The notes below the pieces were generated by a model. It saw nothing but the letters and a program-made list of their open reading frames with translations. It did not search any database and was not told the DNA's origin. Shown in pieces: positions 8,386-36,600 of a stretch of DNA of 64,000 bases. Position 1 is the first letter of the stretch. Each line of letters starts with the position of its first letter. This stretch comes from Candidatus Heimdallarchaeota archaeon (lineage in GTDB: Archaea > Asgardarchaeota > Heimdallarchaeia > Heimdallarchaeales > Heimdallarchaeaceae), in assembly GCA_030603365.1 (NCBI GenBank), contig JAUVXV010000006.1, positions 1 through 64,000 of the forward strand, read 5' to 3'. Both the position numbers and the translations under genes were made by a program.

Positions 8386-8430
8386 AAGTAGGAGAAATTT
8401 TAAAACCAACTCTTACCCTTTTTCCCCCGT

Positions 8431-9366: not shown

Positions 9367-9623
9367 TTTATTTCTTTATTCTCTTAACTTCGTAACAAGT
9401 GGATTCCAAACATGGTTAAAACTCTAACATTAATTAATCTTTTAGAGAGTAATATAACTCTTTATCCTAGTAACTCTCTACCTACTTCCTACTTATTCCA
9501 TTTTTTTGATTTTTGGGTTAAGAGTAAAAGATAAGTAGATAGACTTTAGGTTAAGTAATTCATACATCTATTAGTCTCATTAAAATTATAAAAAGAAGAA
9601 GTGTTGAATGGTTTGTTTTGCTA

Positions 9624-10925: not shown

Positions 10926-11137
10926 TTCTTTTCCCTAAACACAAGAATACTCATCTAAGTTTATAAGGATAGTGAAAAAGAAGTTTTTGCTATTTACAAT
11001 ATTCAAACTTCTACTTTTCTGATTCCAAAGGATAAGAGGAATATATTGCAGTTCCAGTTCTGTTTTTGGTTGCACTAATTCTGAGAATTTAAGCGAAAAG
11101 ATGTAAAATAGTGAAATCCTAGCGATTGGAGGATAAA

Positions 11138-11407
11138 TTACTCCCTTATTCTTTTAACTTCGTAAACCAGCGGATTGTGTGCATCTGGGCAAGCGTGAGT
11201 TGATATATCCCTATCTTCCAACCAAGGAAATTCAGCTCCATAAGCCATTGCATAAACTTTAGGTAAAACTGAATAAAGAGCATGAAGACAGATTTTTCCT
11301 TTCATTTCGTTCTTATCAAAACTAATCAGTATTTCATCTCCAACATTATGACCTGCTGCACAAGTTCCTTCCTGTTTAATAACTTTCAATACAATATCGT
11401 GAGCCAT
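11138..11407 (-). CDS. TIGR04076-like small Cys protein
   Basis: GTC-x-AGH-x-VGD, ICLHAL, ACPD-x-x-N-x-x-VYEV. Confidence 0.75.
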   Translation of the reverse strand: MAHDIVLKVIKQEGTCAAGHNVGDEILISFDKNEMKGKICLHALYSVLPKVYAMAYGAEFPWLEDRDISTHACPDAHNPLVYEVKRIRE

Positions 11408-11457
11408 GGCATAGTTGGATATTCAAGGTTTAAATATCTATTCCCCAATAATATTAT

Positions 11458-12528: not shown

Positions 12529-12535
12529 ACAGCTG

Positions 12536-14887: not shown

Positions 14888-15483
14888 ACTCCTTTCCTCC
14901 TCATCGCCTTTCTATATTCAATATATTCTATTATCTTAGAACCAAGATTTTCAAATGCATCATTAACATTTTCTTTAGTTTTAGCTGAGGTTTCAAAATA
15001 GTCAACTTTGAAACCTTTGTCAGAATATTTTTTGTTTAGAGTTTTGATAAGTGTGTCAACCTGGGTTCTAATCTTCTTTCTAGTACTTTCAGTGATTAAA
15101 TCCATTTTGTTGCCTATTATAGAGAATGGAACAACTCCTCGTTCTGTACCTTGTTCAAGTTCTGCAACCCACTTATTAAGAGATTTAAGAGTAGAGAGTT
15201 TTTTCGCATCAAATACCATCATAGCACCAAGAGCTCCTTTATAGTACAACATTCTAACACTCTCAAAAACATCTTGACCCGCAATATCCCAGATTTGAAA
15301 TAAAATTGAATAATCCTGTATCTTTTTTGTGAGAGAAGCAAAATCTGCTCCTATTGTTTGAAGATGTTCAGTAACAAACCCTTCTCCTAGATAGGATCTT
15401 CGTAAACTTGTCTTTCCTACTCCTGCTTCTCCTGCGAGTATGACTTTAAGGTATAATTTTTGTCCATAGCTCAAATCGATCAC
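14884..15483 (-). CDS. Rab-like small GTPase (Ras superfamily)
   Basis: G1 GEAGVGKTS, TIGADF, G3 WDIAGQ, YYKGALGA, G4 NKMD, G5 ETSAK. Confidence 0.95.
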   Translation of the reverse strand: MIDLSYGQKLYLKVILAGEAGVGKTSLRRSYLGEGFVTEHLQTIGADFASLTKKIQDYSILFQIWDIAGQDVFESVRMLYYKGALGAMMVFDAKKLSTLKSLNKWVAELEQGTERGVVPFSIIGNKMDLITESTRKKIRTQVDTLIKTLNKKYSDKGFKVDYFETSAKTKENVNDAFENLGSKIIEYIEYRKAMRRKGV

Positions 15484-17911: not shown

Positions 17912-19321
17912 CTAGATGAAATCTCCAGATTCTATCTTCTGAGGTAAATAGAAGTTTGTTATATATTGAGGATCACGAGCATTTAATGCTTGTATTTCAG
18001 CCTTGAATCCGCTATCTATTTGAATTTGTAGTTGTTCCTTCCATTTTGGTTTTCGTTGAACAAATTCTTCCTCTAACATGAGTTTAGATCTGTGGATATC
18101 TTTAGAAGATAGCTTTAAGAGTGCGCTTCTTGGGATATCAAAACCACTGTCTGCTGATAAATCACTTGGAAGAAGTCCTAACCATTTGATGCTAGGAACA
18201 GCTAAATGGCTTGATTCAAAACTAAGAGCTTTACTACCTACACTATAAACCCTCATAATCTCAAAACCATATGGATCAGCATCCATTATTGCAAAAATTG
18301 GAAGATTCAAATCATCATGAATTTTCTTCAAAAATTGTCTTGTAGCTACATCAGGCTGACCTTTAGCAGTTATTAAAATACTTGGAACATAGTCATAAAA
18401 CTGATCCTCAGCCAACCTATTGAATACAGCATCCTTTTCAATTACAAGACACATTTCTGCATCAGTATCTAAGCTTTCAATGTCGTCAATATTTGGTGAG
18501 ATAGCTTTTCCTGCGCCAATTGCGCGGCAGTTAATCAAGTCACCTTTCTCCCTAAAACTCAATCTTCCTACGACAATACCTTTTGATGAAGCACTTACAT
18601 TTAGTGACGAACGAGTAACCTGCAACATTGCACTAAGATCCTCAACAAGTGAATCAGAGACTGACTGTTTTTCAAATGAATTGACATCCATATAGAAGAT
18701 ATCTCTTTTAGTACTATGAATATCTCTTGAAAGAAGATCGTGGATTAACTTCATTATAATTGTCATCTGTTCTACTGAACTTACTGAAGAAAGACTTCTG
18801 AATTGTCTCTCAATCATTTGCCTACCAATTAAAACAAGTTCCTGTTCTTCGTCAAAACCAACATTTGTTCCTCCTCTAGAAGGAATGTAAAATGAAGCAT
18901 TGGTAGGATTTTCCATAGCTTGTTGAAGAAAATTCAAAGCATATTCAACAAGAAGATTATTAGTTTCTTGAGAATCTTTTGTTTCTACATGGGTAACACC
19001 ATAAGGCATGAAAAAATCTTTCTTTTGCATTAATTCTGCTTTTAAACCCTCAATTTTATCCAATAGAACATTTCGTTTAACACTTACTTTCATTGTTTGT
19101 TTCTCTAGAGAATAACGGGAGAGTTTTTTAGTAGGTTCTAATTCATACCATTTCTTTCGACTTCTTAAAAAGAGTACATATGTTCCCCTTTTTAAGTCAA
19201 AAGTATCTCTCGCCCAATTGTACATCTCTCTTGTGAGTACATCTCGATCAAAACTTGCACTGCGTTCTGTAGCAGGTAAAACTGTTGAATTTACAAATGT
19301 GAAATTATATTGTTCTGTCAT
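17912..19321 (-). CDS. top6A: DNA topoisomerase VI subunit A (Spo11 family) with about 85-aa N-terminal extension
   Basis: STKRDIFY (catalytic Tyr), VIEKDAVF, KGQPD, DADPYG TOPRIM motifs. ATGA overlap with top6B. Confidence 0.95.
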   Translation of the reverse strand: MTEQYNFTFVNSTVLPATERSASFDRDVLTREMYNWARDTFDLKRGTYVLFLRSRKKWYELEPTKKLSRYSLEKQTMKVSVKRNVLLDKIEGLKAELMQKKDFFMPYGVTHVETKDSQETNNLLVEYALNFLQQAMENPTNASFYIPSRGGTNVGFDEEQELVLIGRQMIERQFRSLSSVSSVEQMTIIMKLIHDLLSRDIHSTKRDIFYMDVNSFEKQSVSDSLVEDLSAMLQVTRSSLNVSASSKGIVVGRLSFREKGDLINCRAIGAGKAISPNIDDIESLDTDAEMCLVIEKDAVFNRLAEDQFYDYVPSILITAKGQPDVATRQFLKKIHDDLNLPIFAIMDADPYGFEIMRVYSVGSKALSFESSHLAVPSIKWLGLLPSDLSADSGFDIPRSALLKLSSKDIHRSKLMLEEEFVQRKPKWKEQLQIQIDSGFKAEIQALNARDPQYITNFYLPQKIESGDFI

Positions 19322-22300
19322 TTTCCACTACTCCTTGATTTGCTCTTCGATGAGCCATTAGACGAAGTTGTTGACGTTTGTATCCTTTTAGACTCTGAAC
19401 CCATATCCATGAGTGTAGTTTGTTTAGTGCTCTTTGGTCTAGTAGATTTAGTAGTTGCTTTTGTAGCAGGTTTTTTTGTTGAAGTGCTAGATTTAGGTTT
19501 GGATCCAGTCGAAGGAGTCTTCTTAACTGTAGTTTTTGTTGGTGTGGTTTTTTTAGCTTTTGAAGTCTTGGTAGTTTTCAAAGGAAGTCTGTTTTTAAGA
19601 CTTTTAATCCCCATATAACTCAAATTAACTTGACTATCAAGAACTGTTGAGGGGTAGAATACAAACTCTTTGAAATTACTTATACCCAGTTGTTTTATTT
19701 GCTCTAAAATGTCTGCTTTTACATCTAGTTCCTCGATTTCCTTATCTAAGTATTGAACCAGTTTCTCTACTTTAGCTAAGGTTAAAGCTGAAGATTTTCT
19801 AGTCTCTTTTTTGGGGAAGAGTAGTTCTTGTATTGAAGTGATACCTGCAGCTCCAAGCTTTTGAATTTCTTGATTTTCAATATATGGTAAAGAAACTTTA
19901 AGAGCTGTTTCATCTTTCTGAGCTAATTTTATTGACTGATTTGTAAGAGTAGAAAGAATAGTTTTCAATTGCCTTTCAGGCACACTTATCTGACTTGACA
20001 ATTGTTTACAATTAGAAACAAATAAATCATTTATAACACTGAAGCCTTTAGAATATAAAATAAACAAACTAGTTGGATTCTCTCTAATCAAGTCAGATAG
20101 ATAGTAAAATGGTGTGTTCAATATTTTCTTTATTCTCGATAGAAGAAGTGTCTTTAGACCAGAAGTTTTCATCAGAATTTCATCTGAAACATTTAAGTGA
20201 CTGATAGTTGAATATCCAGCTCTAATTAGCTGTCTCTTAGTAGTATCATCAATAAAACTAACAATATTAATAGGATAGCAATCAGCTGTTATGATATCAG
20301 CTATGTTCACAAAACTTAGTTTCATTATCATTGTTTTAGCTGAAATATTTTGTTTATCTGAAAGTTTACTTTTAGTAAGTAGGCTACTAATATCTGCAGG
20401 TAGAAGTAAATCAAAAACTTGAGAGTATCCAAGATTATCTAGTTTTGATAGGAAAGATCGGTCATTGGTTAAGATAGAAATTGGAGCTCTGAGTACTGAT
20501 AATAATTTTTCCAGATCTGGTTCCAAACCTTGAACACCGACCTGTTCAATATAATTGTACAGGGAACCGAATGTTCTAAGGTCTCTTTTCTTTAAGTTAG
20601 TATTAATATCAGTTTCTTTTACAAAATTGGAAAGACGTCGTTGCTCGTTGGTGATTAGTTCAGCTAAAGAATCAAACCTAATTAAGGGGAGAATATCTTT
20701 ACAGATAGCTTCTGAGCCTGATTTATGCTTACAATGAGCTAATAAATCATATATTGTTGCTAGTTTATTTTTAGTAGCATAAGCAAATGCTTCTTTGTCT
20801 TCTATTAATGTGGGTAAATCATTTAGTTGTAAAGTCATGATATTCTTTAATCGCTGACACAATTGCCATTCTTTTGTGCCTTTTGACTTGGCTCTCTTGC
20901 TAAATAATAATGCTTCTTCAACAGAATAGATAGAGTTTCGTTTTAGTGTATTTAACTCACTTGTAGTAAATAGCTTTGCTGGGAATTTTATGAGATTATT
21001 CTTGAGTTCCTTAAGAAGATTAAGAGATATGTTTCTGATGTTTCTCTGTAAAGTCTTGTCAGTCACTACACTAAAGAGTGATTGTTTAGGCTCAAGTAAT
21101 AGTTCAGCTATTGATTCAAATTCTTGAGTAGCTATTTGATTAATATTCTCTATTGTTGGTTCCGATAGGAGGATAGGAGGTCTTTCTAGATATACGAACA
21201 ATTCCTTAATTTGGGTATCATATTGCTCTGGTAAACCGCTTAAGATTGATGAATATAATTTCTCATCAAAACTGTGTAGGAGAAGAAGATATTCCAATGA
21301 TAAATCTGGACACTGGAGTTTCTGATTTGCTTGATCTATATTTAGAACATTGCATAGTTCTGTGCCTTTTGAAAATATGAAATCAGAGGTTCTTTGTAAA
21401 ATATCCTTTTGTGATTTAGAAAGAGAGAGAGATTGCAAATTGGGAAATAAGAATAAAAGCTCTATGAGAGTTAAAGATTCAGTTATTTTTGGTTCTATCT
21501 TCTTAACATCTAATTTAACCAAAGTGTTTATCTTTTCTTTGAGATTTTTAGGGATAGTGTTTTTCGAACTTATCATTTCAAGAAGTTTAATATAATCTCT
21601 CAGACCGAGTTTATTAAGTTCAATTATATCAGTTGAAGATAGAATTTTGTTTGCTTTCAGTATTGGTGGTTTAAGGATATTGTCTGGAGTTAGGTTTATT
21701 ATTAGTTTCTTAACATCATTTGCTGGAATAGACAGAGAAGAAGCCAACTCTTTGTTTGTTAATCTGTACAAATCGCCTATTTCCTTGAGACCTTTGGATA
21801 TTTTCTTCCACCCTTTCAATGGGATTTTCGGTAATTTAATCAGCAAAATAGATGTAGTTAAAATCTTTTCAACTGAATTTATTACAGATTTCGAAATCCT
21901 ATAGTTATCATTTGCGATATCTAGTATCAGTTCATCAATTGTCTGATAATAGGAACTTAGCTCTTTCCTAATATTTGGGTTGAAAATCTTTATGCTAGAG
22001 ATTTTGATTCTTTTATTAATATCGCTTTTTATCTTTCCAAAGGTAAGAGTTGGTATTAGTTCTTGTATCTTGGTTTTAAGTTTGATTGGAGCAAAAGTAG
22101 GCCAATAACTACTCGGTTTGATTAAAAGATCAACAAATGTATAGATATTCTTAGAGCTTAAAATTTCTATATCAGTTGAATTGAATTTTGATGAAGCTGA
22201 AATAGGGTGTTTCAATATTTGAAGAATTTTCTGATTTTCAGAACTCAATTTGTTATACTTAATATACATTTCAAGGAGAAGTTCGTTAAACAGTGTAAGA

Positions 22301-25300
22301 TTCTTAGCTTTCAAATCTTGATTAATAGAAGAAAATTCAGCTTCATTGAATATCTGTATTATTGTGATGAAATCTTCTTTGATTTTTTCTGTTGAAGCTG
22401 AGAATGTACGTAAGAATTCTGTAATATTGTCTATTTCTTTTTGTTCAGATAAAGTCATTAACTCCTGTACTGAATAGATTCCTTTCATCAGATAGTTTTT
22501 CTCAATTTCGTAAAATGGAAGTTTTAATAATTCCTTGTAATATAGAATCGGAGTCTGTAGTATTGATCCAATTCTTCCAATAATTTTATCTATTCTGCTA
22601 TCGGATACAATCCATGGATAAACTGAATATTCTCTCAAATCTGCTAGATTGAAAACTCCTACTGATTTTAGAAAATCTTTATCTCTATCTGTTAAAAAGA
22701 ACGCATCTCTAAGGTGTGAGTCTTGTTTAGAAATGATTTTGGATTCGACATCATCTATGTTTATCGACATTATTATTTCTCTTATTTTTGTAATGCTAGT
22801 TCTTGCTTGGGTTGCAATCGTTTTTTGAGAAACAATAAGTAAATCAGCTATAGTCTTAATATCTGCCCTTTTAAGTGCTGCTTCAACTTTATTTTCTAAT
22901 TCTAGATACCTAATATTGGCTAGTAAATATGGTGCAACTCTTGAGAACATTCTTTTATCTTCAACAAATCTCTTTGAAGTAAGAAGTGAAGTATAAGAAT
23001 GAAATTCTTTTCCAATTATGTATTTCTCAGTTGTTGATAGTGGATCTTTGAACTTCAATTCTTCAATATTCTTTATTGTATCAACACCGTCAAGAATGGT
23101 TTTAACATGCTCTTTGGAGAGATTATGGAAATTTACTAGTAAGTCTGCTATTGTGTAATGTTCCTTGTTGTAAATGTAAATCAGCAATTCTTTAGAGAAT
23201 CCAGGTATTAAACTTGGACTTGAGTTCAGTTTTATAATTAACTCCTCAAAATCTTCTTCCTTTAGCTTGCTTCTTGATGTTATATGGTGTGATGGAAGAT
23301 ATAGGAGATGATCTATTGTTGTTATCCCTGCAGAAATCAATGATTCAGTGATGGCTTTTTTTAAGCCTAATTTTTCAATAGAAACACCAAATTTCTTAAT
23401 ATCATGTAGACGTTTAATCAAGTAATTAGGATTGGTTTTTTGTCTCGAAATAAGTCTCTTAATACTTGCTGACCATTTCTGTTGAGGTACTTCTAACAAA
23501 TCTGTATAGGTTAAGACATTATTTGAGAGTAGTTCATCTACTTCTTTCTTGCTTAATTTCAGAACTTTACCAATTATTGTTATAGGTGAGAGAAGCATAG
23601 AAACTAATTGAGTAAGGCTTTTCTTATCTTCCTGCGAAATTGCTAACTGATCTAGTTTTAAATTAGCTGCTTGTGTCAGAGAAACACAACCATGTTCCTT
23701 TAACAGATTCTTAACATTGTCTGAAATTTCAGTAAAGAGATCGATATCCAACCCAACTAATTTTGCGCTACTTTCTAAATCACTTAAGTCAATCTGAGTT
23801 ATTAAGGCAATTATTTTTTCCACAGTCTGACCTGTAATTTTAGATATCATTGGAGGTGGTAAGGATAAGAATTGGAAGACGTTGTGGATACCATTTTGTT
23901 TCAATTTTTGTATCTGAACTGGTGATAATCCATCAACTGAAGAAATGTTGAAATTTCTAAGTGAGTAAAGAATGGGTTTAATCTCAGAAGAAATCTTGTT
24001 ATCTGAAACTATTTGACTATCAGCAGCTATTAATTCCTCCAAGTAAAATATCTTCTTTGTTTTAAGTTTCTTTAAGAATTTACTATCAGTGATAAGTGCC
24101 ATATCTACTAGTTTAATCGCCCATGATGGAGGTTTGAGATCAATAACTTCATCATTGATTGCTCGATTAAATTTTGATATAATACTATCAGGAAAGGCTA
24201 CAATTTCTGGTTTTGATTTTGATTCAGTAAATAATAATTGAGCTGTAAGAATATTAGTTGCTTGTTTGTCTCTTAAACGATTGAAATTCTTTACATCTAG
24301 ATTTATTACATCATATAACCAAGAAACAGGTTGAAAGAAATTGAAGGTTACATTTGAAGAGACTCTCTTTTCCTTGTCTGTAAAACTAAAGAGAGGATGC
24401 TGAACAAAATCAAAAAGGAAAAGACCGGTAGTTAATCCATAGCTTCTGAATCTTTCACTCATTTCATTAGGAAGTTTAATCGCTTGATTCAAAAAGGGAC
24501 TAAATGTTTCAGACATTATTTTAGTCAGATTAAAATTCACTTGAAATTCACGAATGGTTCTATTTACTGCTGGAGATGTATTTTCCATCATCTGAACCTT
24601 TGCTGAAATTAACTCTATTACATGATGAACTCCATTATGTCTGAGAGCTATCTTTGTTTCCATATCAAAATATGGAAGAGAAAAAATACTCAAACTGAGA
24701 AAACTCACAAGTTGTTCTACAAATGATATATTGGAAATTTTCTCTATCCTCTCAAATTCTGAGAATTGTAAGAGATGTTCAGGTACAAAACCAAACAAAT
24801 CTTCAACTGTTTTCTTATCGGGATCAAAATACAAATCTCTTAGAAGATTTTTTATTGGTTCGTTCAATAACAAAGGTGTTCCTCTGTCCAAACTAAATTG
24901 ACCCTTTCTTATCTCAGAAATCTCATTGGGTATAGAACCATCAAAAACCTTCTTCAACTCAGTGTCATTTACACACAAGAAATCAATTATTCTCAAAACA
25001 CCCATCTGTGATAATTTCAACTTCGTTTCTGTTGAAATTTCTTTAATCCGGAAGATTGAAATGTTACAGTTTCCAAGAAAGTCTTTGACTACTTCATCAG
25101 AAACATTGGTAATTGTAAATGCTTGATAATAATGACTATAAACATCTTGAACATATTCTTTATCAGACTTTAGCAGGTAGTTAATTGTGGATTTCCTAAG
25201 AACGGGAAACTCTTCAATTTTAACCCCTTTTCTATTGACTTCTTTTGCTAGAGAAATTGGTTCAATCTTATCGAGATACTTTCTAACTTCCTTTTCACTA

Positions 25301-28300
25301 ATGTCTAGAATAATAGCGATAGTAGAAACATCTTCAGTGATGAAGGATAAGATATCTCCAACACCAGAGTATATTAGCTTCTGAACTTGTTGGTTAGTTA
25401 ATCCAATAAATGCTACTGATGCAAGATACAATTGCACTTCACGGAAAACATCCAGTTTCACAAGATGTGGGTGTGATTCTCTTAATTCTGCCATACGAGA
25501 ATTGAAATCTTGAATAGAATAGATTCCGAGCTTGTGGATTTTTTCTAAATAATCCTCTTCTATTGAAGGGAGTAAGGTAATAGGAATTGCTGCTTCAACT
25601 CTCTTGTCTGATAACTCGTCTAAGGAGAGAATATCAAGAGCATGAAATTCTTTGTAAATTGGATTTTGAGTAATATGAAAGAGTTCTTTTTTATCCAATA
25701 AAGCTAAATCAATTACTGAGTTTATTTCATAAAATTCTAAGCGTTTAATCTCATCAAAAGAGAAAAATCCAATAAATCTTATGGAACCAGAGAGAATTTC
25801 CTTGACTTTTTGATAATTTTTAATCGGAAGGATATCAGATATTCGTTGAGTTTCAGCAGAATAATACAGAGTTTCAATATCTATTATTCCTACATCCATT
25901 AACTTTTGGATTTGTTTTTCTGAAACTAATGAAGATTCAAGAATTTTATGAGTTTGTTCTTTTCTGAATGAAACTATTAGTTGATAATTCAAATTGTTCT
26001 GTATCTCGATGATATATCTTTTAGACAAACCAGTTATCTCTGAAATCTGTGAGATAGGTATTGAAAAGAAATCTATCAAAGTATTAACTGATGACTTACT
26101 TAATTTGAGAGCCATTTCTCGAGGTAATCCCATTGATGATATTGGTATTGCTAAGTCTTTGAGGAGAAGATTGAAGGAATCTACTTCCATGAGTTTAGCA
26201 TGGAATGGAGCTAGCCCAGAATGTTCAACTAAATCAATATCAAATACATCACCTATCTTAGTATTAGTATAATCCTCTCTCTGAATTTTCTTGATTTTAG
26301 TAAAGAATGGTGTTATTCGTAGAGGTAGCTCTAAAAGTGATCGAATTATTGTAAGATTGTAATTTTCAGCTTGATAGTGTTTATCTTTAGATAAAAGATG
26401 GGATATCACATTAGGGTCTGTTATAACATCCGACAAAGTTTTGTTTTCAAAATCCTGGACGATTTCTTTAAAGAACGAGCAATTATAAACTGATGATGGT
26501 AATTTTGAGAAGTAATGGAAAGACCTCATTTCCAGCATTTTCGAAGAGTTAGATGAAATTGATCTGTATAATAGTGGATCTGTAATTTCCTCATCAGGAA
26601 TGAATAGAAGTTGAAATACGCTTTTGATGTTATTTTGTTCCCAAACTTCAATTGAATACTCAGAGATTTCAGTAAATATTCTTAATGGAAGAGCCAATAC
26701 TTTTTGAACGGCTGATATTTTAGGCCACAATTCAGGATTCAGCTGGTAAAAGGCAGGATCACTTTCATAGAACAGTTCTTGAATCGTTTGAAATCTTTCA
26801 AATTGAAAGATTGAGTCTCTGCTTAACTGTCTTTGTTCCATCTTATCAAATAATCTTGTTTCAAAAGCAAAAATCCCTTTATCTTCATAAGCTGCTATTA
26901 TCCTTTGAGTAGTGAGTGAGGATTTTACTTCATCTATCTGTTTAGGAGGAATCTTCAGAAGTTTGTTTAGTTTCTGGGTCGATGTTAATATAAAATCTGC
27001 AATTGTAAGAATCTTATTCGCTCGAAGTAATTCAGTTTGCTCGAATGTTAGGGTTGGTAGGAAGTAACTAGGAAGTGAAAAATAACTGAGAATATCAGCT
27101 AAGTCTAAACCACGTTTAATATTCTCAATTCTCTCATCTGGAATACCAGTTCGTTCCATTAGACTTTCAGGAGAAGTAAGCATGAATCCAAGCAAAGTAA
27201 AAACACTAACTTCTTTTAAAGTATTAATTAATTCAGCATCGAGCATATCAGATATATGAGCTAGAGGAAGATTGAGAACTTGTTTGAAAGCTTCAACAGT
27301 ACTCCAAGGTAATATAGAATTATCCCATTTTACTTCAGAAGAAGAGAAATACAAATCTTCTAGAGTTAGAATATTAACCTCTTCAAGAGCTTTAACGATT
27401 TCAGGTTTGAATAAATCAAGTTCAGAGATATCAGTACCTGTATCACTAATTCGAATATTCTTTTGGAAGCTTTTTGCTTCTTCAATGTTGAAATTAAGAT
27501 AGGAAGCTATGTCTTCAGCTTGACTAACTATTAAATCGATAATCCTGGTTATACCATTATTCTGCAAGACATTTAATTGGTCAGTTGAGAGAGTTGTTAT
27601 TTGGTCTTCTTCAATTGTTTTTGTTCCTTCTTCTCCTTCAATTCGAATGGTTTTCTTGACTTTTTTCTCCCAAGCTACAAGAGTCAAAGGAGATCTTAGT
27701 AGTTTTCTAAATTTGTCAACTACATTCCAATGAACAAGAGACGCTGAAAAAATCATTGGATGTGCTAGATAGAATATTTTGTCTATTGTATCATAACCCG
27801 CAAGAATTAGAGATTCAATTTCGTGAGTAGAAAATCTTTCAGAATCTTCAAAATCAAAGGAGACTAAAGATCTGAATCTATTTCGATCCATTTTTTCAAA
27901 AAAGATTGTTCCTTGTTGTTCAAGTTGAAAATCACTTAAGAGATCAATAATTTCTTGTTCTTCTTTATCTAAAAATGATGCAAGCTCTGCGGAAGTATAT
28001 TCAAACAGCTGATGAACTGCAATAATTCCTTTTGCTCTTAAGCTTTCATAATCTGCAAGAGTTAATTTTGAAATTCTCGAAACAGGTAAATCTAATGCTC
28101 TTTGAAATTCATGAAATTCACTAATTATCAACACTTGTTTCTTAAATTCATCAGTTCCATCTATCTTACGTGTCTTTAATATTTCGTATAACTCAAGTGC
28201 TGCATTTCTCTGACTGGTATTACTCAGTTCAGATTCAATAATTGCAGGAATCAAATCTAGGAATTGTTTTATTGTAACAATATTTCTAGCCTTCAATCTT

Positions 28301-31300
28301 AGAAGAGCTTCTTTTAATTCAGGAAGTCTCTTGTGATTTTTATCAAATAAATGTGATAACTCAATAATCTCCATTTGTGACAATTTGCTTATATTTTCTA
28401 TCATTAACCAGTATCCTTCGGTAAAATGGAGTTTCTCAGAAGGATAAAGATAATATAAATCCTGTATTGTAGGATTTGTGGTTTTAAAATATTCTATTAA
28501 ATTCGGAAAAATTCCTTTGAACAAGCTTAAATCTTTGCCCAAATTCTCTTTATTCCTTTGAAATTCTGAAAATGAGATGTTCTTCTTCATTGACTTAATT
28601 TTATTTTCAGATGTTTCTAGAATTACAGCTAGTTCATCATCTGGCCAAATAATGAATCTTCCTACACAGTTTAGTCCTACTTCTCTTATTAAATGGGAAA
28701 TATCTCTTAAATGTGGATAAATAAAGATAATTGGTGAGCGTAAGAAAACAATCAGATCAAGATATTTTTTCTTATCTTCTGCATTCATGGAATATACTTC
28801 TGGAGAATTGAAAAGAAGTTCCTCAAACACATTTATACCATACTTCCTGAGAAGCTCTTGGTGTTCCAACCACTCTGGAAAAGGGGTTCCAAGAGCTCTT
28901 TTCATTCTCTCAGATTCACGCTTGTTTAATCCCATTTTCTTTAGTTCTGGAGATGAATATGCAAGAAATGCTGAAGAAGTAAATACTTGATTTTTATGGA
29001 GCTCTTTTTCTAAACCTGCAGGAATAATCTTTATGTGAGCTGTGCTATGATCGTACTCTTTCTCGCTCAAAGTTTGTTTTAATTTTCTTTTTGATTCTTC
29101 TAATAACAGAGGCAGAAGTTGTTTTAACTTTGGTTCATAAATTTGATCTGCTGAAAGATTAATCAATTTAGCTAATGTAGTAATACCTTTAGTAGCTAAA
29201 TTCTTTATTAAGGCACTTTCTTGTGTTTTCATCTCTTCATTTGAGAAAATCACAAAATCTGCAAGTTTAGAAGAGGGAGAGTCTTTATTGAGAATTTTTA
29301 GATATGTCGCATAAAGAATTCTTTCCAGCTCTTTCACTAGTATAAGATCATCAGTTGAAGCTGTTACAAAATCCTCTATTGTTCTTATTTTTCTTCTATG
29401 GAAAGCGTTCTTTGTATACCCATCTGTCCAATCAGGTTTCATTTTTGTGATATTGGTACTTCTAAAATTGGGGAATTTAGTTGATAAAGTGTTGAAAATA
29501 TCTTTAAGATGTTCAACAAGAACAACAGTAATTTCTGCCTGGTAATTTATATCATTTGGATAAATTAGCTGATACAAGAATTCTTCCACTGATACATCTG
29601 CTGAAAGAAGTTCTCTAGACTTTTGCTTCAATTCTTTGAAAGTTGGAAAGAGGTGTTGTATTTTTAGTTGAGAAATAGTAGTTAGTTTGTTTAATTCATT
29701 TATTGAACCACCAGCTCTTATAGAACCATCTGATTTTCTGTTCTTTAAAAGTAGTTGATTTATTAATTCATCTTTCTTGTTTTCAAACAGCTTTTCAGCA
29801 AATCCATATACTGAATGTAATTTATCATATTCGGTTGCAAGAAAATGATAGCTGTTTTGAATCCATCTTCTATTCAACGCATCCCTTAGAGAAAGTGTTG
29901 ATTTACCATCTTTCTTATCGAATCTTCTTTCGACTGATCTAGTTATGAAAATTCTCGAATCTAAATCAGGACTTAATCCTTCTCTATCAAGCTCGTAAAT
30001 CGTTCTTAATTTGATGTTATATACTTGAACAGCTGGTAGCTGAAGGATAGTCGCTAATTCAGGTGTAGGAGTAAGGAGAAAATCAGAAATAGATAAAATT
30101 CTTTTTGCTTTCAGAGAGTTTTGTATAGGTTTGGGGCACCATATATCTAAACCGAGCAATCTTTTACTTAAAGGCATAAACAACTTTGCTTTTTTCGGAA
30201 TTCCATGAGCTAAAGCGGAAGCTATTCTATTTTTCTCAAATCTAAAATCTGCAAGAGGGAGGTCTTCATCTTCTAAAATCTGTGTTAAGTTATCTATAAT
30301 GACTGGAGCTGATTTTACAAACCGAGAGAGACGTGCATGTTCTCTTCTCTTTCTTTTAGCTCTGCCTAAGAAAGTTTTGAGTCGTCTCCCTAATTGTAGT
30401 AATGCTAATCTAATCTCTTCTTCAATTTCAGGAACTATAGAGATATATTCTTTGCTTGTTTCAGGAAATGGAATTTTAGTACTTACTAAAGAAACTGCAA
30501 CAGCTAGAGGGTCCGACTGACGAGTAAGTCCATATTCATTCCAACGTATTGAAGAAACAACATGTGTTATAACATCATTTCCTGCTCCAAAAATAAGAGG
30601 AATACGATTAGCGTATCTGTATATTATCTTATTATCTTGAACTGTAGCACTTCGAGCTTGAGATGCTTCATTTACTCCTCCACCATATCCTAATGCAACT
30701 TCAATCACAAAAGGATGACCAGAATAAGCTTTTGCTGGTCTTGAAATTGCTTCAACGAATTGAGGAGTAAGTTCCTTTTCTAAACCTTTCCTTAATCTTC
30801 CTGCACCTAGTGGAGATAAGGATGATCCCTTGGGACTCTCAAACTGAAAGACTCTATCTCTTTTTCGTTTAACATCCTTAGCTTCTTGATAAGCCTTAAC
30901 AAAGCCTTCGTGAACAATCCTTCGAATTTCATTTGAGGTTAAATCCTTAGGATTTTTATTTGGATCTATTTCTAAGAGTTGAAAGAAATCCTCTGCGATA
31001 TCCTCAGTTACACCCATAAAATGTTCAGCAAGAAAAAGTTTGAGCTTTTTGCTTTTGTTAGCTCCTAATTCAGCTTTGAACTGAGTAATATCACATCCCC
31101 AAGGATGAATCTTAACATATTGGGGAGGTTCTGGCATATCATCTACAACGCTTTCATAAATAATCTCATCATATTCCCCTTCTTTATCTCCTGGAACTAC
31201 AATATTGAAGGTAGAATAAGGAGTGATTATCGCAAGTTGTCTGAAATACTCTTTTACGCTATTTTTTGCTAGACTCCAAGCACCGGTAAATGTAATGCTG

Positions 31301-31878
31301 ATTTCAGTACCAGGTTCGTCTAGATAGTTTGGATCACCAGGGAGATATTCTCTCTGTTCCATAATCACAGGTTCATTCTTTTCTAAATTAATCATCAAAT
31401 GCATTTCATGTGTAATATCATCCATGAAATAACGCGAGCGAATTCTAGCGGGTAAGTCAACTGAAGACATTGAGTATAACAAGCACATTTTGGCTCCCAA
31501 TCCAAAACGTCCACGTGTCTGAATTACTCCATATTTAGTACCAGTTAGAACTCTTCCAAAAAGATCTGCAATTTGATGTCCAGGTACACCTGTACCATTA
31601 TCAGTGCAGGTTAGTTGGAGAAAATCAAGATGTTTTTCTAGCTTCTTATATTGCTTAACATCCAATAACTCATTGATTTCTCTACTGGAAAGTTTCCTTA
31701 AATCGATTCCTATTATAGGATTTATCCCTCTTTTTTCTGCTGCATCCAAACCATTTTCTACCAATTCTCTAATGCTGGTAAAGACAGCACGCATGGAATT
31801 TCCAAACCCAGCAATAGCTCGGTTATCATTGAAAAATGCTGCTGCAGACATCTTTTTTGTAACTGAAGTATCAGACAC
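19318..31878 (-). CDS. top6B: Giant (4186 aa) DNA topoisomerase VI subunit B: GHKL-H2TH-transducer core fused to a long HhH-like repeat array
   Basis: ELVENGLDA, DNGTG, RGRFGLGAK, GTEI, RYANRIPL, WNEYGL, ETSKEYI in the first ~540 aa. Then repeated L-x-x-x-GI-x-TI-x-DL modules and a K/T/S-rich tail. One unbroken 12.5-kb ORF. Confidence 0.92.
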   Translation of the reverse strand: MSDTSVTKKMSAAAFFNDNRAIAGFGNSMRAVFTSIRELVENGLDAAEKRGINPIIGIDLRKLSSREINELLDVKQYKKLEKHLDFLQLTCTDNGTGVPGHQIADLFGRVLTGTKYGVIQTRGRFGLGAKMCLLYSMSSVDLPARIRSRYFMDDITHEMHLMINLEKNEPVIMEQREYLPGDPNYLDEPGTEISITFTGAWSLAKNSVKEYFRQLAIITPYSTFNIVVPGDKEGEYDEIIYESVVDDMPEPPQYVKIHPWGCDITQFKAELGANKSKKLKLFLAEHFMGVTEDIAEDFFQLLEIDPNKNPKDLTSNEIRRIVHEGFVKAYQEAKDVKRKRDRVFQFESPKGSSLSPLGAGRLRKGLEKELTPQFVEAISRPAKAYSGHPFVIEVALGYGGGVNEASQARSATVQDNKIIYRYANRIPLIFGAGNDVITHVVSSIRWNEYGLTRQSDPLAVAVSLVSTKIPFPETSKEYISIVPEIEEEIRLALLQLGRRLKTFLGRAKRKRREHARLSRFVKSAPVIIDNLTQILEDEDLPLADFRFEKNRIASALAHGIPKKAKLFMPLSKRLLGLDIWCPKPIQNSLKAKRILSISDFLLTPTPELATILQLPAVQVYNIKLRTIYELDREGLSPDLDSRIFITRSVERRFDKKDGKSTLSLRDALNRRWIQNSYHFLATEYDKLHSVYGFAEKLFENKKDELINQLLLKNRKSDGSIRAGGSINELNKLTTISQLKIQHLFPTFKELKQKSRELLSADVSVEEFLYQLIYPNDINYQAEITVVLVEHLKDIFNTLSTKFPNFRSTNITKMKPDWTDGYTKNAFHRRKIRTIEDFVTASTDDLILVKELERILYATYLKILNKDSPSSKLADFVIFSNEEMKTQESALIKNLATKGITTLAKLINLSADQIYEPKLKQLLPLLLEESKRKLKQTLSEKEYDHSTAHIKIIPAGLEKELHKNQVFTSSAFLAYSSPELKKMGLNKRESERMKRALGTPFPEWLEHQELLRKYGINVFEELLFNSPEVYSMNAEDKKKYLDLIVFLRSPIIFIYPHLRDISHLIREVGLNCVGRFIIWPDDELAVILETSENKIKSMKKNISFSEFQRNKENLGKDLSLFKGIFPNLIEYFKTTNPTIQDLYYLYPSEKLHFTEGYWLMIENISKLSQMEIIELSHLFDKNHKRLPELKEALLRLKARNIVTIKQFLDLIPAIIESELSNTSQRNAALELYEILKTRKIDGTDEFKKQVLIISEFHEFQRALDLPVSRISKLTLADYESLRAKGIIAVHQLFEYTSAELASFLDKEEQEIIDLLSDFQLEQQGTIFFEKMDRNRFRSLVSFDFEDSERFSTHEIESLILAGYDTIDKIFYLAHPMIFSASLVHWNVVDKFRKLLRSPLTLVAWEKKVKKTIRIEGEEGTKTIEEDQITTLSTDQLNVLQNNGITRIIDLIVSQAEDIASYLNFNIEEAKSFQKNIRISDTGTDISELDLFKPEIVKALEEVNILTLEDLYFSSSEVKWDNSILPWSTVEAFKQVLNLPLAHISDMLDAELINTLKEVSVFTLLGFMLTSPESLMERTGIPDERIENIKRGLDLADILSYFSLPSYFLPTLTFEQTELLRANKILTIADFILTSTQKLNKLLKIPPKQIDEVKSSLTTQRIIAAYEDKGIFAFETRLFDKMEQRQLSRDSIFQFERFQTIQELFYESDPAFYQLNPELWPKISAVQKVLALPLRIFTEISEYSIEVWEQNNIKSVFQLLFIPDEEITDPLLYRSISSNSSKMLEMRSFHYFSKLPSSVYNCSFFKEIVQDFENKTLSDVITDPNVISHLLSKDKHYQAENYNLTIIRSLLELPLRITPFFTKIKKIQREDYTNTKIGDVFDIDLVEHSGLAPFHAKLMEVDSFNLLLKDLAIPISSMGLPREMALKLSKSSVNTLIDFFSIPISQISEITGLSKRYIIEIQNNLNYQLIVSFRKEQTHKILESSLVSEKQIQKLMDVGIIDIETLYYSAETQRISDILPIKNYQKVKEILSGSIRFIGFFSFDEIKRLEFYEINSVIDLALLDKKELFHITQNPIYKEFHALDILSLDELSDKRVEAAIPITLLPSIEEDYLEKIHKLGIYSIQDFNSRMAELRESHPHLVKLDVFREVQLYLASVAFIGLTNQQVQKLIYSGVGDILSFITEDVSTIAIILDISEKEVRKYLDKIEPISLAKEVNRKGVKIEEFPVLRKSTINYLLKSDKEYVQDVYSHYYQAFTITNVSDEVVKDFLGNCNISIFRIKEISTETKLKLSQMGVLRIIDFLCVNDTELKKVFDGSIPNEISEIRKGQFSLDRGTPLLLNEPIKNLLRDLYFDPDKKTVEDLFGFVPEHLLQFSEFERIEKISNISFVEQLVSFLSLSIFSLPYFDMETKIALRHNGVHHVIELISAKVQMMENTSPAVNRTIREFQVNFNLTKIMSETFSPFLNQAIKLPNEMSERFRSYGLTTGLFLFDFVQHPLFSFTDKEKRVSSNVTFNFFQPVSWLYDVINLDVKNFNRLRDKQATNILTAQLLFTESKSKPEIVAFPDSIISKFNRAINDEVIDLKPPSWAIKLVDMALITDSKFLKKLKTKKIFYLEELIAADSQIVSDNKISSEIKPILYSLRNFNISSVDGLSPVQIQKLKQNGIHNVFQFLSLPPPMISKITGQTVEKIIALITQIDLSDLESSAKLVGLDIDLFTEISDNVKNLLKEHGCVSLTQAANLKLDQLAISQEDKKSLTQLVSMLLSPITIIGKVLKLSKKEVDELLSNNVLTYTDLLEVPQQKWSASIKRLISRQKTNPNYLIKRLHDIKKFGVSIEKLGLKKAITESLISAGITTIDHLLYLPSHHITSRSKLKEEDFEELIIKLNSSPSLIPGFSKELLIYIYNKEHYTIADLLVNFHNLSKEHVKTILDGVDTIKNIEELKFKDPLSTTEKYIIGKEFHSYTSLLTSKRFVEDKRMFSRVAPYLLANIRYLELENKVEAALKRADIKTIADLLIVSQKTIATQARTSITKIREIIMSINIDDVESKIISKQDSHLRDAFFLTDRDKDFLKSVGVFNLADLREYSVYPWIVSDSRIDKIIGRIGSILQTPILYYKELLKLPFYEIEKNYLMKGIYSVQELMTLSEQKEIDNITEFLRTFSASTEKIKEDFITIIQIFNEAEFSSINQDLKAKNLTLFNELLLEMYIKYNKLSSENQKILQILKHPISASSKFNSTDIEILSSKNIYTFVDLLIKPSSYWPTFAPIKLKTKIQELIPTLTFGKIKSDINKRIKISSIKIFNPNIRKELSSYYQTIDELILDIANDNYRISKSVINSVEKILTTSILLIKLPKIPLKGWKKISKGLKEIGDLYRLTNKELASSLSIPANDVKKLIINLTPDNILKPPILKANKILSSTDIIELNKLGLRDYIKLLEMISSKNTIPKNLKEKINTLVKLDVKKIEPKITESLTLIELLFLFPNLQSLSLSKSQKDILQRTSDFIFSKGTELCNVLNIDQANQKLQCPDLSLEYLLLLHSFDEKLYSSILSGLPEQYDTQIKELFVYLERPPILLSEPTIENINQIATQEFESIAELLLEPKQSLFSVVTDKTLQRNIRNISLNLLKELKNNLIKFPAKLFTTSELNTLKRNSIYSVEEALLFSKRAKSKGTKEWQLCQRLKNIMTLQLNDLPTLIEDKEAFAYATKNKLATIYDLLAHCKHKSGSEAICKDILPLIRFDSLAELITNEQRRLSNFVKETDINTNLKKRDLRTFGSLYNYIEQVGVQGLEPDLEKLLSVLRAPISILTNDRSFLSKLDNLGYSQVFDLLLPADISSLLTKSKLSDKQNISAKTMIMKLSFVNIADIITADCYPINIVSFIDDTTKRQLIRAGYSTISHLNVSDEILMKTSGLKTLLLSRIKKILNTPFYYLSDLIRENPTSLFILYSKGFSVINDLFVSNCKQLSSQISVPERQLKTILSTLTNQSIKLAQKDETALKVSLPYIENQEIQKLGAAGITSIQELLFPKKETRKSSALTLAKVEKLVQYLDKEIEELDVKADILEQIKQLGISNFKEFVFYPSTVLDSQVNLSYMGIKSLKNRLPLKTTKTSKAKKTTPTKTTVKKTPSTGSKPKSSTSTKKPATKATTKSTRPKSTKQTTLMDMGSESKRIQTSTTSSNGSSKSKSRSSGK
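19600..30150 (-). repeat. Protein-level array of about 50 degenerate HhH / RadA-N / alpha-CTD-like modules within Top6B (boundaries approximate)
   Basis: Examples: NLATKGITTLAKL, VLQNNGITRIIDL, SLISAGITTIDHL, ALKRADIKTIADL, KLGAAGITSIQEL. Not repetitive at DNA level. Confidence 0.75.
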
Positions 31879-32233
31879 GATTGTAACCCCTTCGGTTGAA
31901 ATTTTATTCCTATTATATATATAAGATTATTGTCGGAATAAGTACAATGTGAGTAATATTACACCGTATCTATATATAAAGTTGAATTTTGTTCCCATGT
32001 TACGTTTAAAAAGTGGTTCATAATCTTAATAGTTGTAGTAAAGGCTATGATTACGGGTGTTTTTATAGTAAAATCTAGATAAAAGGAAAGATGGTGCAAG
32101 CATTACGAGTTGAGTGTATAGAAGTAAATAATCATCCAGCTTTAAGTAGAACTATGTCATAAACTTGAATTTCATCGGCAACTTAATAGAAAAGTCTTAA
32201 AATCAATGCAAATAATCAATAATTGAAGCACTG

Positions 32234-33490
32234 ATGTCAAGAATGAAAGCGATTCTAAAACGAGGAAAGAAGAAAGATAGAGATTATCCTAAGCAGGTTA
32301 ATGGTTTCTTAGAATTTAATTATAGAGGAATCATTTCTGACAATAGAACAGAAGAAAATCCATTAATTGGTTGCGAGAGTTCTGATACACTTTATCTAGA
32401 AGGAGAGTATAGAGAAACTCCAGTAAGTTTAATCCTAACTGGAAGTTATGGTGAAGCGATTTCTGAAAATTTAAACAAGAGATTCAGCAACTCCAATCCT
32501 TCAGCAATTTATCTTGGTTTTAATACTGATTTTCAAAAATCTTCTGATCTTCCCAGTATTGTATTACCACCAGAAGATAGAGAAATAAACTCTTTTCTTC
32601 AAGGAAAGAACTGGTACCAAAAGAACGAAGAGAGAATCAAATCTTATGTAAAAAAAGCTATTAGGAATACTTCAATTGCATTCATTTTTTTAGACAATAA
32701 TCCGTTCATACTTGGCTTAATGCAAAATGTCATTACTTACATCAAAGATATGAAGACTCAACCTGTTCTATTCTTGCATCTTCCTTCAGAAGTAGACAAA
32801 ATAAACGAAGAATTCTCAATTCTAGCTTTTATCTATAATATATTGAAAAAAGAGACTTCTTTTAATGCACCAATCGTAATCGTAGATGAAAAATACGCAT
32901 TGAAATTAAATTCGAACATATCTATAGAAGAAATGCGAAACATGATTATTCAAAGAGAAGCTAATTTAATAGCAGATTTACTTTTAGGAATCTCACAATC
33001 ATCAAATTTCTATCATACAGATCAAAGCAATTTTGACAGAATTTTTAGAGAATCTAATGGAATTTGTCAGCTATTTAGTTTGGATATTTATGATAATAAT
33101 CCAGATCTATCATACCTGTTTAAACGTCATAAAAAAGCTTGTAGTTTTTTAAGCACTGAAAAACCTACTCGGGGATACGTAATTATACAATCTGGAAATG
33201 AAGGTTTAAAAACTGAAATCTACCAGAATATTAGAGAATTTTATGGAAATTCAGATGTGATACTTTCAATATTAAGTAAGAGGGCTAATGGTGCAATTAT
33301 TAGAGGTGTTTATAGTTTTATTTCTACTCCTAGAAATCTTTTAGATAGATATTCAAAATTTGACAAAGTGTCAGTTTTGTTATATGACATTGAAGATCAA
33401 GTTAAAGCAGTAACAAAAGAAAAATTGTATGAAGAGGTTCTAAATGCTAAAAGATTTGAGCTAAAATTATTAGAAGAAGTGAAAAAATAA
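32234..33490 (+). CDS. Degenerate FtsZ/tubulin (CetZ-like) fold protein lacking the GGGTG(S/T)G motif
   Basis: LILTGSYGEAISENL (T1), GFNTD (T2), AFIFLDNNPFILG in place of T4, LFLHLP, IVIVDE, TDQSNFDRIF (T7). Shares IRGV with 39597..40736. Confidence 0.55.
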   Translation: MSRMKAILKRGKKKDRDYPKQVNGFLEFNYRGIISDNRTEENPLIGCESSDTLYLEGEYRETPVSLILTGSYGEAISENLNKRFSNSNPSAIYLGFNTDFQKSSDLPSIVLPPEDREINSFLQGKNWYQKNEERIKSYVKKAIRNTSIAFIFLDNNPFILGLMQNVITYIKDMKTQPVLFLHLPSEVDKINEEFSILAFIYNILKKETSFNAPIVIVDEKYALKLNSNISIEEMRNMIIQREANLIADLLLGISQSSNFYHTDQSNFDRIFRESNGICQLFSLDIYDNNPDLSYLFKRHKKACSFLSTEKPTRGYVIIQSGNEGLKTEIYQNIREFYGNSDVILSILSKRANGAIIRGVYSFISTPRNLLDRYSKFDKVSVLLYDIEDQVKAVTKEKLYEEVLNAKRFELKLLEEVKK

Positions 33491-33657: not shown

Positions 33658-36600
33658 ATGGATAAAAGACTTCGAGTTTTAATAGGTACTTTAATCTTAG
33701 TTGTTACAATTGGCTCAGCTGTAGTGATTGGAATCATCCTTCCTAGAACTTCAATATCTCTGATGAATGAAATCAACTCGAGATTAAATGAATATGGCCG
33801 ATTAAACGACAATGATTTCATTCCACAAGGTGGAATCGAAACCCCATCAGATTGGATGTATACCAACATCTCTGATGTAGATTCAAGATTTTATGATCAA
33901 GCTCATATCGAATTTTTCAATGTAAGTGACCGTGAAGGATATTTAGATTATAATACGCCTATAGCTTATTACTTCGTTCAAGGAGAGCTTGTTTTTGATA
34001 TTACTATAAACAAAACAGTAAAAGCTTACAATATTGAAGATGATTATGTTGTTTATGCTCAAAGAAAACAATACACGTTTAATGAGACTGCATCGTCTTT
34101 AAGTCCTAATGCAACTGTTTTGAATTTTAATTATATGTGGCCTTACTATATAGCTAATTTTGGAAATGGATCAGAGTACGGATTTCAAGCATATATGGCT
34201 GCTTATCTGATTGAATCAGAACTTGAATTAATCAAAGATATTAAAGGATGGACAGATTCTGAAGTAGCTTATGCTACACTAAATAGAGGATATGCTGAAG
34301 CAAATGGAATTGTTGATTTAGGGATATATCTTCCTCATAATTGGATTAGTGTTCGTCCAGCTTATCAAAATCTAGATTTTGACCAAGCAACAAGTTACAA
34401 AATATTCTTCAATGCTACATATAATGGACATGACTATTCTCTGATAACAGGAGAATATGGTTCCCAAAAATATTTCCTTGATATAGTACGAGGATTGTAT
34501 TATGACTCCGGAGATATTACTATAGACCCAGTTCAACTTTTAGCAGACATTTATGGCATAGATACAGCTGCAGAAAGATTATCTGCAATGTCTTTAGCAG
34601 CATATTTGGATTATCTATCAAATCAACCATCATTAGATTGGTTATACGACAATAAAATATCATATGTATGCTCTAGAACTGCAATGGAATGGGTAATGGG
34701 TATTGAGGATCCACTCTTAGGTGAAACATTCCCTCTACTTAAGAATGAAACCATTTCAAGCGACAGTATTAATTGGGATACCGATCTTTATTATGCAGAA
34801 AAATTGGGTACAAATAATATTAAAGACATAAATCAAATCATCGGAATAGCTAACATTCCTTATTACCATTATGCAGAATCAAGTGATGTCACTGTTAGAG
34901 GGAATTATTCATATGTTCAAGAAGGCAATGATATAAAAATTGTTAGAAATGATCATCCTCTATTTATGGCAATAGGTCAATTTGGCGATTATGATGGGGT
35001 CATAGAAGCTTTTGATGTTAATGGAGATCTCATATACGTTGCAGAAGGAACAAACGGATTAGAGATAATTGATGCTTTCAATAAAAGGTATATGGAGAAG
35101 TATTTTCAATGGAGTAATTTTGGTATTGATGATATCCGAGATTTAGAAATTCTTTACTTTGATGAGAACGGTGCTAATGCAACCATGGTTTTTGCAAATG
35201 GTGAGTATGGAACTGTAGTTCTTGTAGAAATTGATGCTGCTACAGGTTTACCAACAGATAATTTCTGGTCAGAAACTGCTGATGGGTCAGTTTATGCAAT
35301 TGATGTAGTAAATGACACATCTTATGCAGCTTATGCAGCCTTGGGACCTGATGGAATTAATACTTTCACAATCGATGCAACAGGATCAGACATTATTACA
35401 CTTGTAAATCACTACACCTCTTTAGACTTTCCTGAACTTACTAATGTCTTAGATGTAAAAGCTGAAGGTTTTTACCTATATGTTCTAGATGAAGTAGAAG
35501 GATTGTTGATATTCCAACTTAGTGCAGCTGGAGTAATCAATTCTCTTGTAGGACAATACACATTCCTTCCAACTGATTCTCATTATACTAACTTCCACCT
35601 AGATATTGATAATGACTTAATTTATCTAACTCAAGGAGAAGATGGTCTAGTAGTAGTTGATATTTCCTCTAAGTCAAGTCCATCAGAAGCATATCGCTTT
35701 ACAGGTGTTGATCATAAGGGAACAGCTTTAGGTGTATATGTAAATGGAACTGATGTTTATCTAGCAGATTTCGAAGAAGGTTTAGTTCATTTACAAATAC
35801 AAGAAGGAACAGGAACCATTGAAGTAATTGCAAAAGACGAACTTCATTCATTTATAGAGAGCTGGCAAAGAAACAGTAGAACTCAATTAGGAGGCTGGGA
35901 TCTTGGTCCAACAGCTGAAATTGAAGGTATAAAATTCAATAGAACATATGCCTCATATTCAACATATCCAAATATTGACAAAGGTTTAAGACTTCAATGG
36001 TCAGATCTTTTCTTAAGACCATTCTCTTACACATCTGAAACAGATACAGCACTTTTCTTTGATGAAATAGTCTATTACTATAAAGCAGAATATCAAATTC
36101 CATATCGTCAGATGGAAGAATTTGATCTATATTGGATGCATGATGCAAACTTTATCAACTCAAGTTACATCTATGTTGGACGATGGGGTCTAGAAACTGG
36201 ATTAGATTTAGATCCTGATGACTTTTTCATAACACATTCGTTGCCAGGACAACCAAGAGATCCTTTCCACATGCATGAAATGTTTGTTGAACCAGTAACT
36301 GGAAGTGTAGTTGAAAGAAGAGATAGAATTCAATACAATAGTATAGCAAGAAAATATATTGAGTTTTATGATTATCTTGATCCATTCAAATTCGGATTAA
36401 ATGAAGAATTCTTTGATCCTGAAGCTGATTTAGAACCTTATCAATTCTATAAAACATGGCATACAACATTTCCAGGATTAGAAGGAGGTATGGGAACAAT
36501 CTTCTGGCAAGAAGATGTCCATCATGCAACTGAAGTATTCTATGATGATATCAAAGAACTGTTCCTTAACAGAATTAAAGGAGCAGATGCTTCCAGAACA

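Follow-up and report, generated by a model that had tools for sequence, protein, structure and literature searches.

The meiotic break-forming complex Spo11-TOPOVIBL descends from DNA topoisomerase VI (Topo VI), an enzyme whose B subunit is usually given as about 500-800 amino acids in length. The canonical enzymes of S. shibatae (2ZBK, with a 530-aa B subunit) and M. mazei (2Q2E/9O0G, with a 621-aa B subunit) combine a Top6B core of GHKL, H2TH and transducer domains with a Top6A that carries the 5Y-CAP tyrosine and a Toprim DxD motif, and they are encoded by coupled top6B-top6A genes. Their B subunit ends in a short helix or an Ig-like C-terminal domain. Villain et al. proposed that, in archaea that possess gyrase, C-terminal add-ons to Top6B specialise Topo VI or sequester it, and described no extension of the size reported here (PMC9348778); Brinkmeier et al. 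credited Asgard subunits with single extra helices only (PMC9665070). A topoisomerase domain followed by an array of double helix-hairpin-helix (HhH) domains is known from Methanopyrus kandleri Topo V, a type IC enzyme with 12 tandem (HhH)2 domains (PMC9489208). The same module fold is found once or twice per protein in RadA/RAD51, in the N-terminal domains of RAD51C/D, in NusA AR1/AR2 and in the alpha-CTD of RNA polymerase.

The window analysed here is a 64,000-nucleotide stretch of contig JAUVXV010000006.1 from a Candidatus Heimdallarchaeota archaeon. It encodes an enzyme that belongs by every sequence test to the Topo VI (type IIB) family, and that shares with the canonical enzymes the core, the catalytic motifs of both subunits and the coupled genes. 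Judged from its predicted domains, it is nevertheless new in architecture: instead of the usual short ending, its B subunit continues through about 55 helical domains into a basic tail, reaching about eight times the normal size. The principal features of the locus are as follows.

19318..31878, minus strand: giant top6B, 4186 aa, about 480 kDa, the sole top6B of the genome
30259..31878, minus strand: Top6B core, aa 1-540 (GHKL, H2TH, transducer), motifs intact
31886..31893, minus strand: ribosome-binding-site-like GAAGGGGT, 7 nt 5' of the top6B GTG, recognised by inspection of the sequence only
17912..19321, minus strand: top6A, 469 aa, with Y210, E295 and D347/D349, the sole copy in the genome
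17419..17850, plus strand: alba, convergent neighbour of top6A

A preliminary description of this DNA had placed all Top6B catalytic motifs within the first ~540 aa. Alignment of core residues 9-536 with S. shibatae Top6B (2zbk_B, E 6e-83) bears this out, each motif being intact: E38/N42, G1 (93-97), G2 (120-128), G3 (188-193), the H2TH domain, WxxY (446-449) and the switch lysine K468. Both TIGR01052 and NF003218 exceed their cut-offs on Top6B, and Y210, E295, D347 and D349 of Top6A are invariant across 32 Top6A sequences. The giant gene is one open frame that starts with GTG, and its stop codon overlaps the start of top6A as ATGA; with the catalytic residues of Top6A kept, the proposed coupling to an intact top6A that converges on alba was correct. 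The proximity of alba to top6A, a synteny observed in the family alone, is probably context. Alba itself has an N-terminal extension of ~50 aa with acidic ETEV repeats and PAKK/EA repeats. The possibility of an additional, normal top6B fell away in a genome-wide search, which found top6B and top6A once each. A scan for sigma-70 promoters at the locus scored below chance, the sigma-70 model being unsuited to archaea.

A frame of this length could be an artefact or the product of neutral repeat expansion, and in one related genome (G044) top6B is indeed split at the core-arm junction into 625 and 2996 aa (L093:2270-4147 and 4120-13110, with a 28-nt overlap), which is either a genuine split or an assembly indel. 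Conservation refutes this explanation, however, and we consider its probability negligible. Full-length orthologues of the giant Top6B occur in ~35 Asgard genomes, two of them closed, and in the single-contig genomes (n = 2) the protein measures 4181 and 4301 aa. The frame is unbroken to the end of the available sequence (up to 3892 aa) at each of the 15 named Heimdallarchaeota loci that extend far enough to be informative, AB_125 included. No long DNA repeats were found within the gene. Values of dN/dS in four unsaturated genome pairs are 0.02-0.05 for the core and 0.03-0.17 for every arm segment, indicating that purifying selection acts along the whole arm. The 4186-aa frame is therefore genuine, and the mis-assembly that would have undone the preliminary description is countered by the same conserved frame, by the copies in single-contig genomes and by the lack of long repeats.

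Beyond the core, nearly the whole of the protein is taken up by the arm.

19579..30171, minus strand: arm, aa 570-4100, ~55 double-HhH domains (RAD51-N/NusA-AR/alpha-CTD type), 121-aa pair period

Its helical modules start ~35 aa past the transducer; an Ig-like C-terminal domain of the M. mazei type (~100 aa) is absent, and the Top6B extension consists of 3600 aa of helical modules. A profile-profile search, with a profile built on 207 diverse modules, found 44 modules in aa 577-4098 and a single weak match in the reversed control; the spacing of the modules alternates between ~54 and ~67 aa to give the pair period; a plain sequence HMM finds just ~20 in the giant Top6B, which is an undercount. 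AlphaFold2 models aa 1420-2335 (916 aa; pLDDT 87.9, pTM 0.75) as 15 consecutive domains of 4-5 helices, each module being a complete double-HhH domain. Because this model shows 15 domains where the profile saw 12, our best estimate of the arm total is ~55. The high pTM suggests that the modelled segment is a rigid assembly and not beads on a string.

The module fold is that of the five-helix N-terminal domain of RAD51/RadA. VIA-align ranks the N-terminal domains of RAD51D (Z 8.6) and RAD51C (Z 8.2) first, with further matches to AF1548, NusA AR1/AR2 (Z 6.5), alpha-CTD (Z 6.0) and SAM; these values are modest for helical domains, and independent support comes from the Pfam sequence matches RAD51D_N (E 7e-18) and RNA_pol_A_CTD (E 3e-6). 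PF26169 is HHH_XRCC3_RpoA in the Atlas. Neither Foldseek against the PDB nor an Atlas shape search returned a structural match to the whole array, and a phmmer search of solved structures with one piece of the arm gave no match. The preliminary description had counted about 50 RadA-N-like modules fused to Top6B, a figure upheld by the 44 profile matches and by the 15 of 15 domains in the modelled segment. The likeness to RadA holds for the five-helix fold, but not for the hairpin: RadA in this window keeps the canonical GhG (IPGVGP), whereas the arm has a differing 'Gh' form and lacks GhG. That RadA (window 6182-7309, plus strand; 375 aa) has a Lys/Pro-rich N-terminal extension of ~60 aa ahead of its canonical GhG-bearing N-terminal domain. 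The genome's next-best match to the arm profile (E 1e-5) is a 243-aa protein at 54281-55012 of the window (minus strand) that looks DUF4332-like by eye. We also noted stand-alone proteins of 800-1060 aa with 7-11 tandem RNA polymerase alpha-CTD domains (P0060, P0062, P0083 and P0092); a Top6B core was absent from all five poly-alpha-CTD proteins tested.

A HMMER scan of 1.8 billion representatives gave strong matches only to these Top6B proteins or their fragments, and Top6B of 1100-4300 aa occurs across Heimdallarchaeia and in a single neighbouring class. Its total length rises in steps from lineage to lineage, at ~1110, ~2300, ~3500 and ~4200 aa. By GTDB family (f-numbers; f1 is Heimdallarchaeaceae, the family of the genome studied, and we infer that f4 is Kariarchaeaceae and f5 Hodarchaeales), Top6B measures 1105-1118 aa in f7, 2282-2289 in f28, 2303-2322 in f5, ~3470-3540 in f4, 3530 in f3, 4143-4301 in f1 and at least 4241 in f2. 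All cores that bear an arm fall into a single clade (SH-aLRT 100), f7 being sister to the rest, in what is, like the Top6A tree below, a quick tree with SH-aLRT as its only support value. Since the long arms are collinear outward from the core, the arm grew mainly at its distal end. In G047, Top6B is shortened to 2190 aa (L041:8535-15104), possibly by secondary reduction; this is a 1.4-Mb genome, 80% complete, in which no gyrase or histone match was found. The Loki-type Top6B of 1000-1250 aa was considered as the same arm and rejected, its transducer lying near the C-terminus with the extra length upstream of it. At L058-L074 (f15, f17-f21 and f32), Top6B of 1000-1300 aa likewise has its extra length before the transducer, a different enlargement.

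Tandem HhH arrays suggest DNA binding, and the preliminary description had accordingly proposed a DNA-binding arm. Among 572 module instances of the family, GhG is found in none of the first hairpins and in one of the second. The short arm of the sister clade f7 has five canonical GhG hairpins per protein, and for this reason we believe that the arm began as a DNA-binding-type array. RAD51-N and alpha-CTD domains bind DNA without GhG. The RAD51 N-terminal lobe contacts DNA and nucleosomes via lysines (K64/K70; PMC10990931), and an equivalent pair occurs in 1 of 44 modules, as counted in an ungapped and approximate register. The arm is also zoned by charge, given here as net values from sequence, which can mask a basic track.

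28489..30171, minus strand: proximal arm, aa 570-1130, net +12; basic and Trp positions shared by every long-arm lineage
24889..28116, minus strand: middle arm, aa 1255-2330, net -41; the best-conserved part of the arm
19579..24888, minus strand: distal arm, aa 2331-4100, net +24; a lineage-specific extension, less conserved, under purifying selection

Every long-arm family has the acidic middle. Invariant W, R and K positions concentrate in the proximal modules, with the conserved motifs IKxRT, RRWI and WxD..R.I, and the proximal arm is the best candidate for contact with DNA. A uniform, Topo V-like wrap by the whole arm is doubtful, because GhG is lost, the lysine pair is rare and the charge is zoned around an acidic middle. 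The proposal of a DNA-binding arm is thus supported only in part: it gains from the basic proximal, distal and tail zones and is weakened by the hairpins, the lysine pair and the middle.

The tail that follows the last module contains a sequence resembling a PCNA-interacting (PIP) box.

19321..19578, minus strand: Lys/Ser/Thr-rich low-complexity tail, aa 4101-4186, 71% K+S+T, net +21
19399..19425, minus strand: PIP-box-like KQTTLMDMG, aa 4152-4160, without the two aromatic residues

The PIP consensus is QxxhxxAromAromatic, near the C-terminus (PMC4929162). Of 13 other family members, 12 keep the Q and L of the motif, amid low-complexity sequence, and distant Top6B orthologues have the motif in aromatic form. 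It is absent from the Top6B of f3 and f4, and the Lys tail is absent from f5. PCNA is encoded in the genome, where a scan found a similar pattern in 7 of 2387 ORFs, one of them with a Fen1-like N-terminus.

The A subunit also departs from the canonical form, by the addition of an 85-aa N-terminal domain.

19067..19321, minus strand: Top6A aa 1-85, a beta-grasp domain of the integral ubiquitin-like type; basic, without a terminal di-Gly

Structure prediction folds these residues as a beta-grasp (pLDDT 78-91) that matches ISG15, SUMO, TBCE/TBCB and Dsk2 at Z 11-12. With the type 2 integral ubiquitin-like domains (TBCE/TBCB, SF3A1, USP11 and Dsk2) it shares the fold (Z 11-12, rmsd ~2 A over 75-85 residues) and the lack of a terminal di-Gly, but it is fused to a DNA-cleaving subunit of the Top6A/Spo11 family and is at most 18% identical to them. 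A terminal di-Gly is absent from all 32 Top6A sequences, in which the domain continues into K/R-x-V/I and a helix; by the di-glycine criterion it is not a conjugatable modifier. Its charge is +3 to +10 in 31 of the 32. By inspection, each of the 31 other Top6A sequences from long-arm loci carries the domain, and it is missing from the Top6A of f7 and from the other Asgard Top6A inspected. Its bearers form one clade (SH-aLRT 99), and the Top6A tree places its origin in the same clade as the long arm. A complex prediction pairing it with arm aa 545-1125 scored 0.00, which counts neither way on binding.

A second type II topoisomerase accompanies the giant Top6B in nearly all clade genomes checked, a pattern that comes from related genomes and not from independent events. 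This genome encodes GyrA, as do 43 of 44 other f1-f6 genomes; in f5/f6 the gyrA gene immediately precedes top6B in the same orientation (G069:C68, G058:C9, G071:C23, G066:C1 and others), a probable gyrase-Topo VI operon. No gyrase was found in the arm-bearing families f7 (0 of 9) and f28 (0 of 5), which carry a second, short Top6B; gyrase as a prerequisite for the arm was therefore rejected. Several gyrA genes (G015, G016, G023, G026, G027 and G037) encode 939-1726 aa with a Pfam match interrupted near positions 41 and 93 of the profile, which suggests that these frames contain inteins. As regards histones, just 2 of 47 genomes of this order pass the archaeal-histone cut-off, while related orders have many canonical histones, the lineages with a Top6B of 1110-2300 aa among them. 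The sole histone-like genes found in the genome studied are two short, alpha3-truncated ones, whose products are of the face-to-face type and end in RKTVSAxDI/L.

G000:C15:112875-113030 (L098:1465-1656): short alpha3-truncated histone-like gene
G000:C1:254571-254699 (L099:1498-1710): short alpha3-truncated histone-like gene

We tentatively favour, as the best explanation of these observations, a vertically inherited giant Topo VI whose arm is a rigid, zoned tether or scaffold that targets a specialised and probably decatenating enzyme. The A2B2 core would carry out ordinary ATP-driven strand passage, with the basic modules beside the transducer keeping DNA close to the enzyme. The acidic middle would serve as a stiff spacer or as a surface on which proteins dock, and the far end would be fastened to chromosomal DNA or PCNA by the basic distal modules together with the Lys-rich, PIP-like tail. 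Topo VI would thereby be kept at newly replicated, interlinked chromosomes with a bias to decatenation, and supercoil control would be left to gyrase or to the compact second Top6B. In keeping with this idea are the intact motifs of both subunits, the purifying selection on the whole arm, the ordered 916-aa model, the zoning of charge with its recurrent acidic middle, the proximal clustering of invariant W, R and K, and the GhG hairpins of the sister clade. The closest fold, RAD51-N, binds DNA and nucleosomes by lysines (PMC10990931), and add-on domains have already been proposed to specialise Topo VI beside gyrase (PMC9348778), which here co-occurs and adjoins top6B in f5/f6, the gyrase-less f7 and f28 carrying a second, short Top6B. 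The PIP-like motif of 12 of 13 family members, aromatic in distant relatives, points the same way, but it is missing in f3/f4 and the Lys tail in f5; the arm also occurs without gyrase in f7 and f28, and the second-topoisomerase pattern is drawn from kin genomes.

If the arm instead wrapped or encircled DNA along most of its length, it would be a processivity clamp like that of Topo V, which is Foldseek's top row for the arm, a weak match (E 0.028, TM 0.07-0.10). The shared plan of tandem double-HhH domains behind a topoisomerase domain favours this, and in Topo V itself only some of the repeats contact DNA, the rest forming a positive track (PMC9489208). The catalytic cores are unrelated, however, the giant Top6B being type II with 4-5 times more domains, and it differs further in its lack of GhG hairpins, its acidic middle and a whole-array TM of ~0.1. 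With the K64/K70-equivalent pair in one of 44 modules, and VIA-align placing RAD51-paralog N-terminal, NusA-AR and alpha-CTD domains first, we find such a clamp unlikely. RAD51C/D N-termini, NusA AR1/AR2 and SAM are protein-binding domains. Their place among the best folds (Z 8.2-8.6 for RAD51C/D) would suit a scaffold that binds little DNA and docks repair, recombination or segregation factors, or the ubiquitin-like domain of Top6A, which is basic where the conserved middle arm is acidic and which arose in the same clade. The basic proximal and distal zones and the canonical DNA-binding hairpins of the short-arm sister clade speak against it, and we regard a pure protein scaffold, too, as improbable. 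Finally, the longest arms and Lys tails might bridge or compact DNA where nucleosomal histones are lacking, as they are in most of this order and, apart from alpha3-truncated forms, in this genome; loss of nucleosomal histones has been published for a Kariarchaeaceae member (bioRxiv 10.64898/2026.07.02.735847), and canonical histones persist in the lineages with shorter Top6B. Yet this role in chromosome architecture rests on one clade-level coincidence, the 2300-aa form is older and is found alongside 6-13 histone matches per genome, in G010 a frame of at least 4241 aa occurs together with a canonical histone, and the copy number of a topoisomerase is probably too low for bulk packaging; we think it very unlikely.

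The preliminary description had ranked the architecture as its best candidate for an undescribed system, and full-text searches of the freely readable literature found no account of a giant Top6B or of a ubiquitin-like Top6A. The ubiquitin-like domain, the PIP-like tail, the ladder of lengths and the co-occurring second type II topoisomerase go beyond that earlier reading. A conserved B subunit of 1100-4300 aa paired with a ubiquitin-fold A subunit changes what pre-eukaryotic Topo VI may have looked like. It is conceivable, although we would sooner doubt it than not, that in the Asgard lineage considered nearest to eukaryotes a type II topoisomerase was turned into a megadalton chromosome machine, in which two rigid arms of 30-55 RAD51-N-like domains and a ubiquitin-like handle on a Spo11-family subunit would tie strand passage to the replisome or to sister chromosomes. 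Should Top6A/B prove to have passed vertically into eukaryotes (PMC12680538), an enzyme with such accessories may have been ancestral to Spo11-TOPOVIBL and plant Topo VI. The lineages also form a graded natural series of ~7, 30, 40 and 55 modules, some with GhG and some lacking it, in which to study how accessory domains weight decatenation against relaxation and how a clash between Topo VI and gyrase is averted. Expression of the giant Top6B is already testable, since proteomes have been deposited for a cultured Hodarchaeales strain; those available are of Ca. Margulisarchaeum peptidiphilum HC1 and KowaHeim1.

Several neighbours in the window deserve mention. Divergent from top6B, and adjoining it across the genus, is a gene for a 418-aa protein (32234-33490, plus strand) that has no match in Pfam or NCBIfam and, by eye, a tubulin/FtsZ-like alpha/beta patterning. 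Beyond it, a membrane-anchored LVIVD-repeat protein of 1010 aa (33658-36690, plus strand) gives a weak CD36 match, its synteny being family-wide. At 12536-15483 (minus strand), a gene for a Ras/Roc-like small GTPase overlaps a 783-aa HEAT-repeat gene, and a 649-aa protein encoded in a higher-GC stretch (51327-53276, minus strand) has a C-terminal TnpB/Cas12f-like zinc-finger match (E 4e-6).
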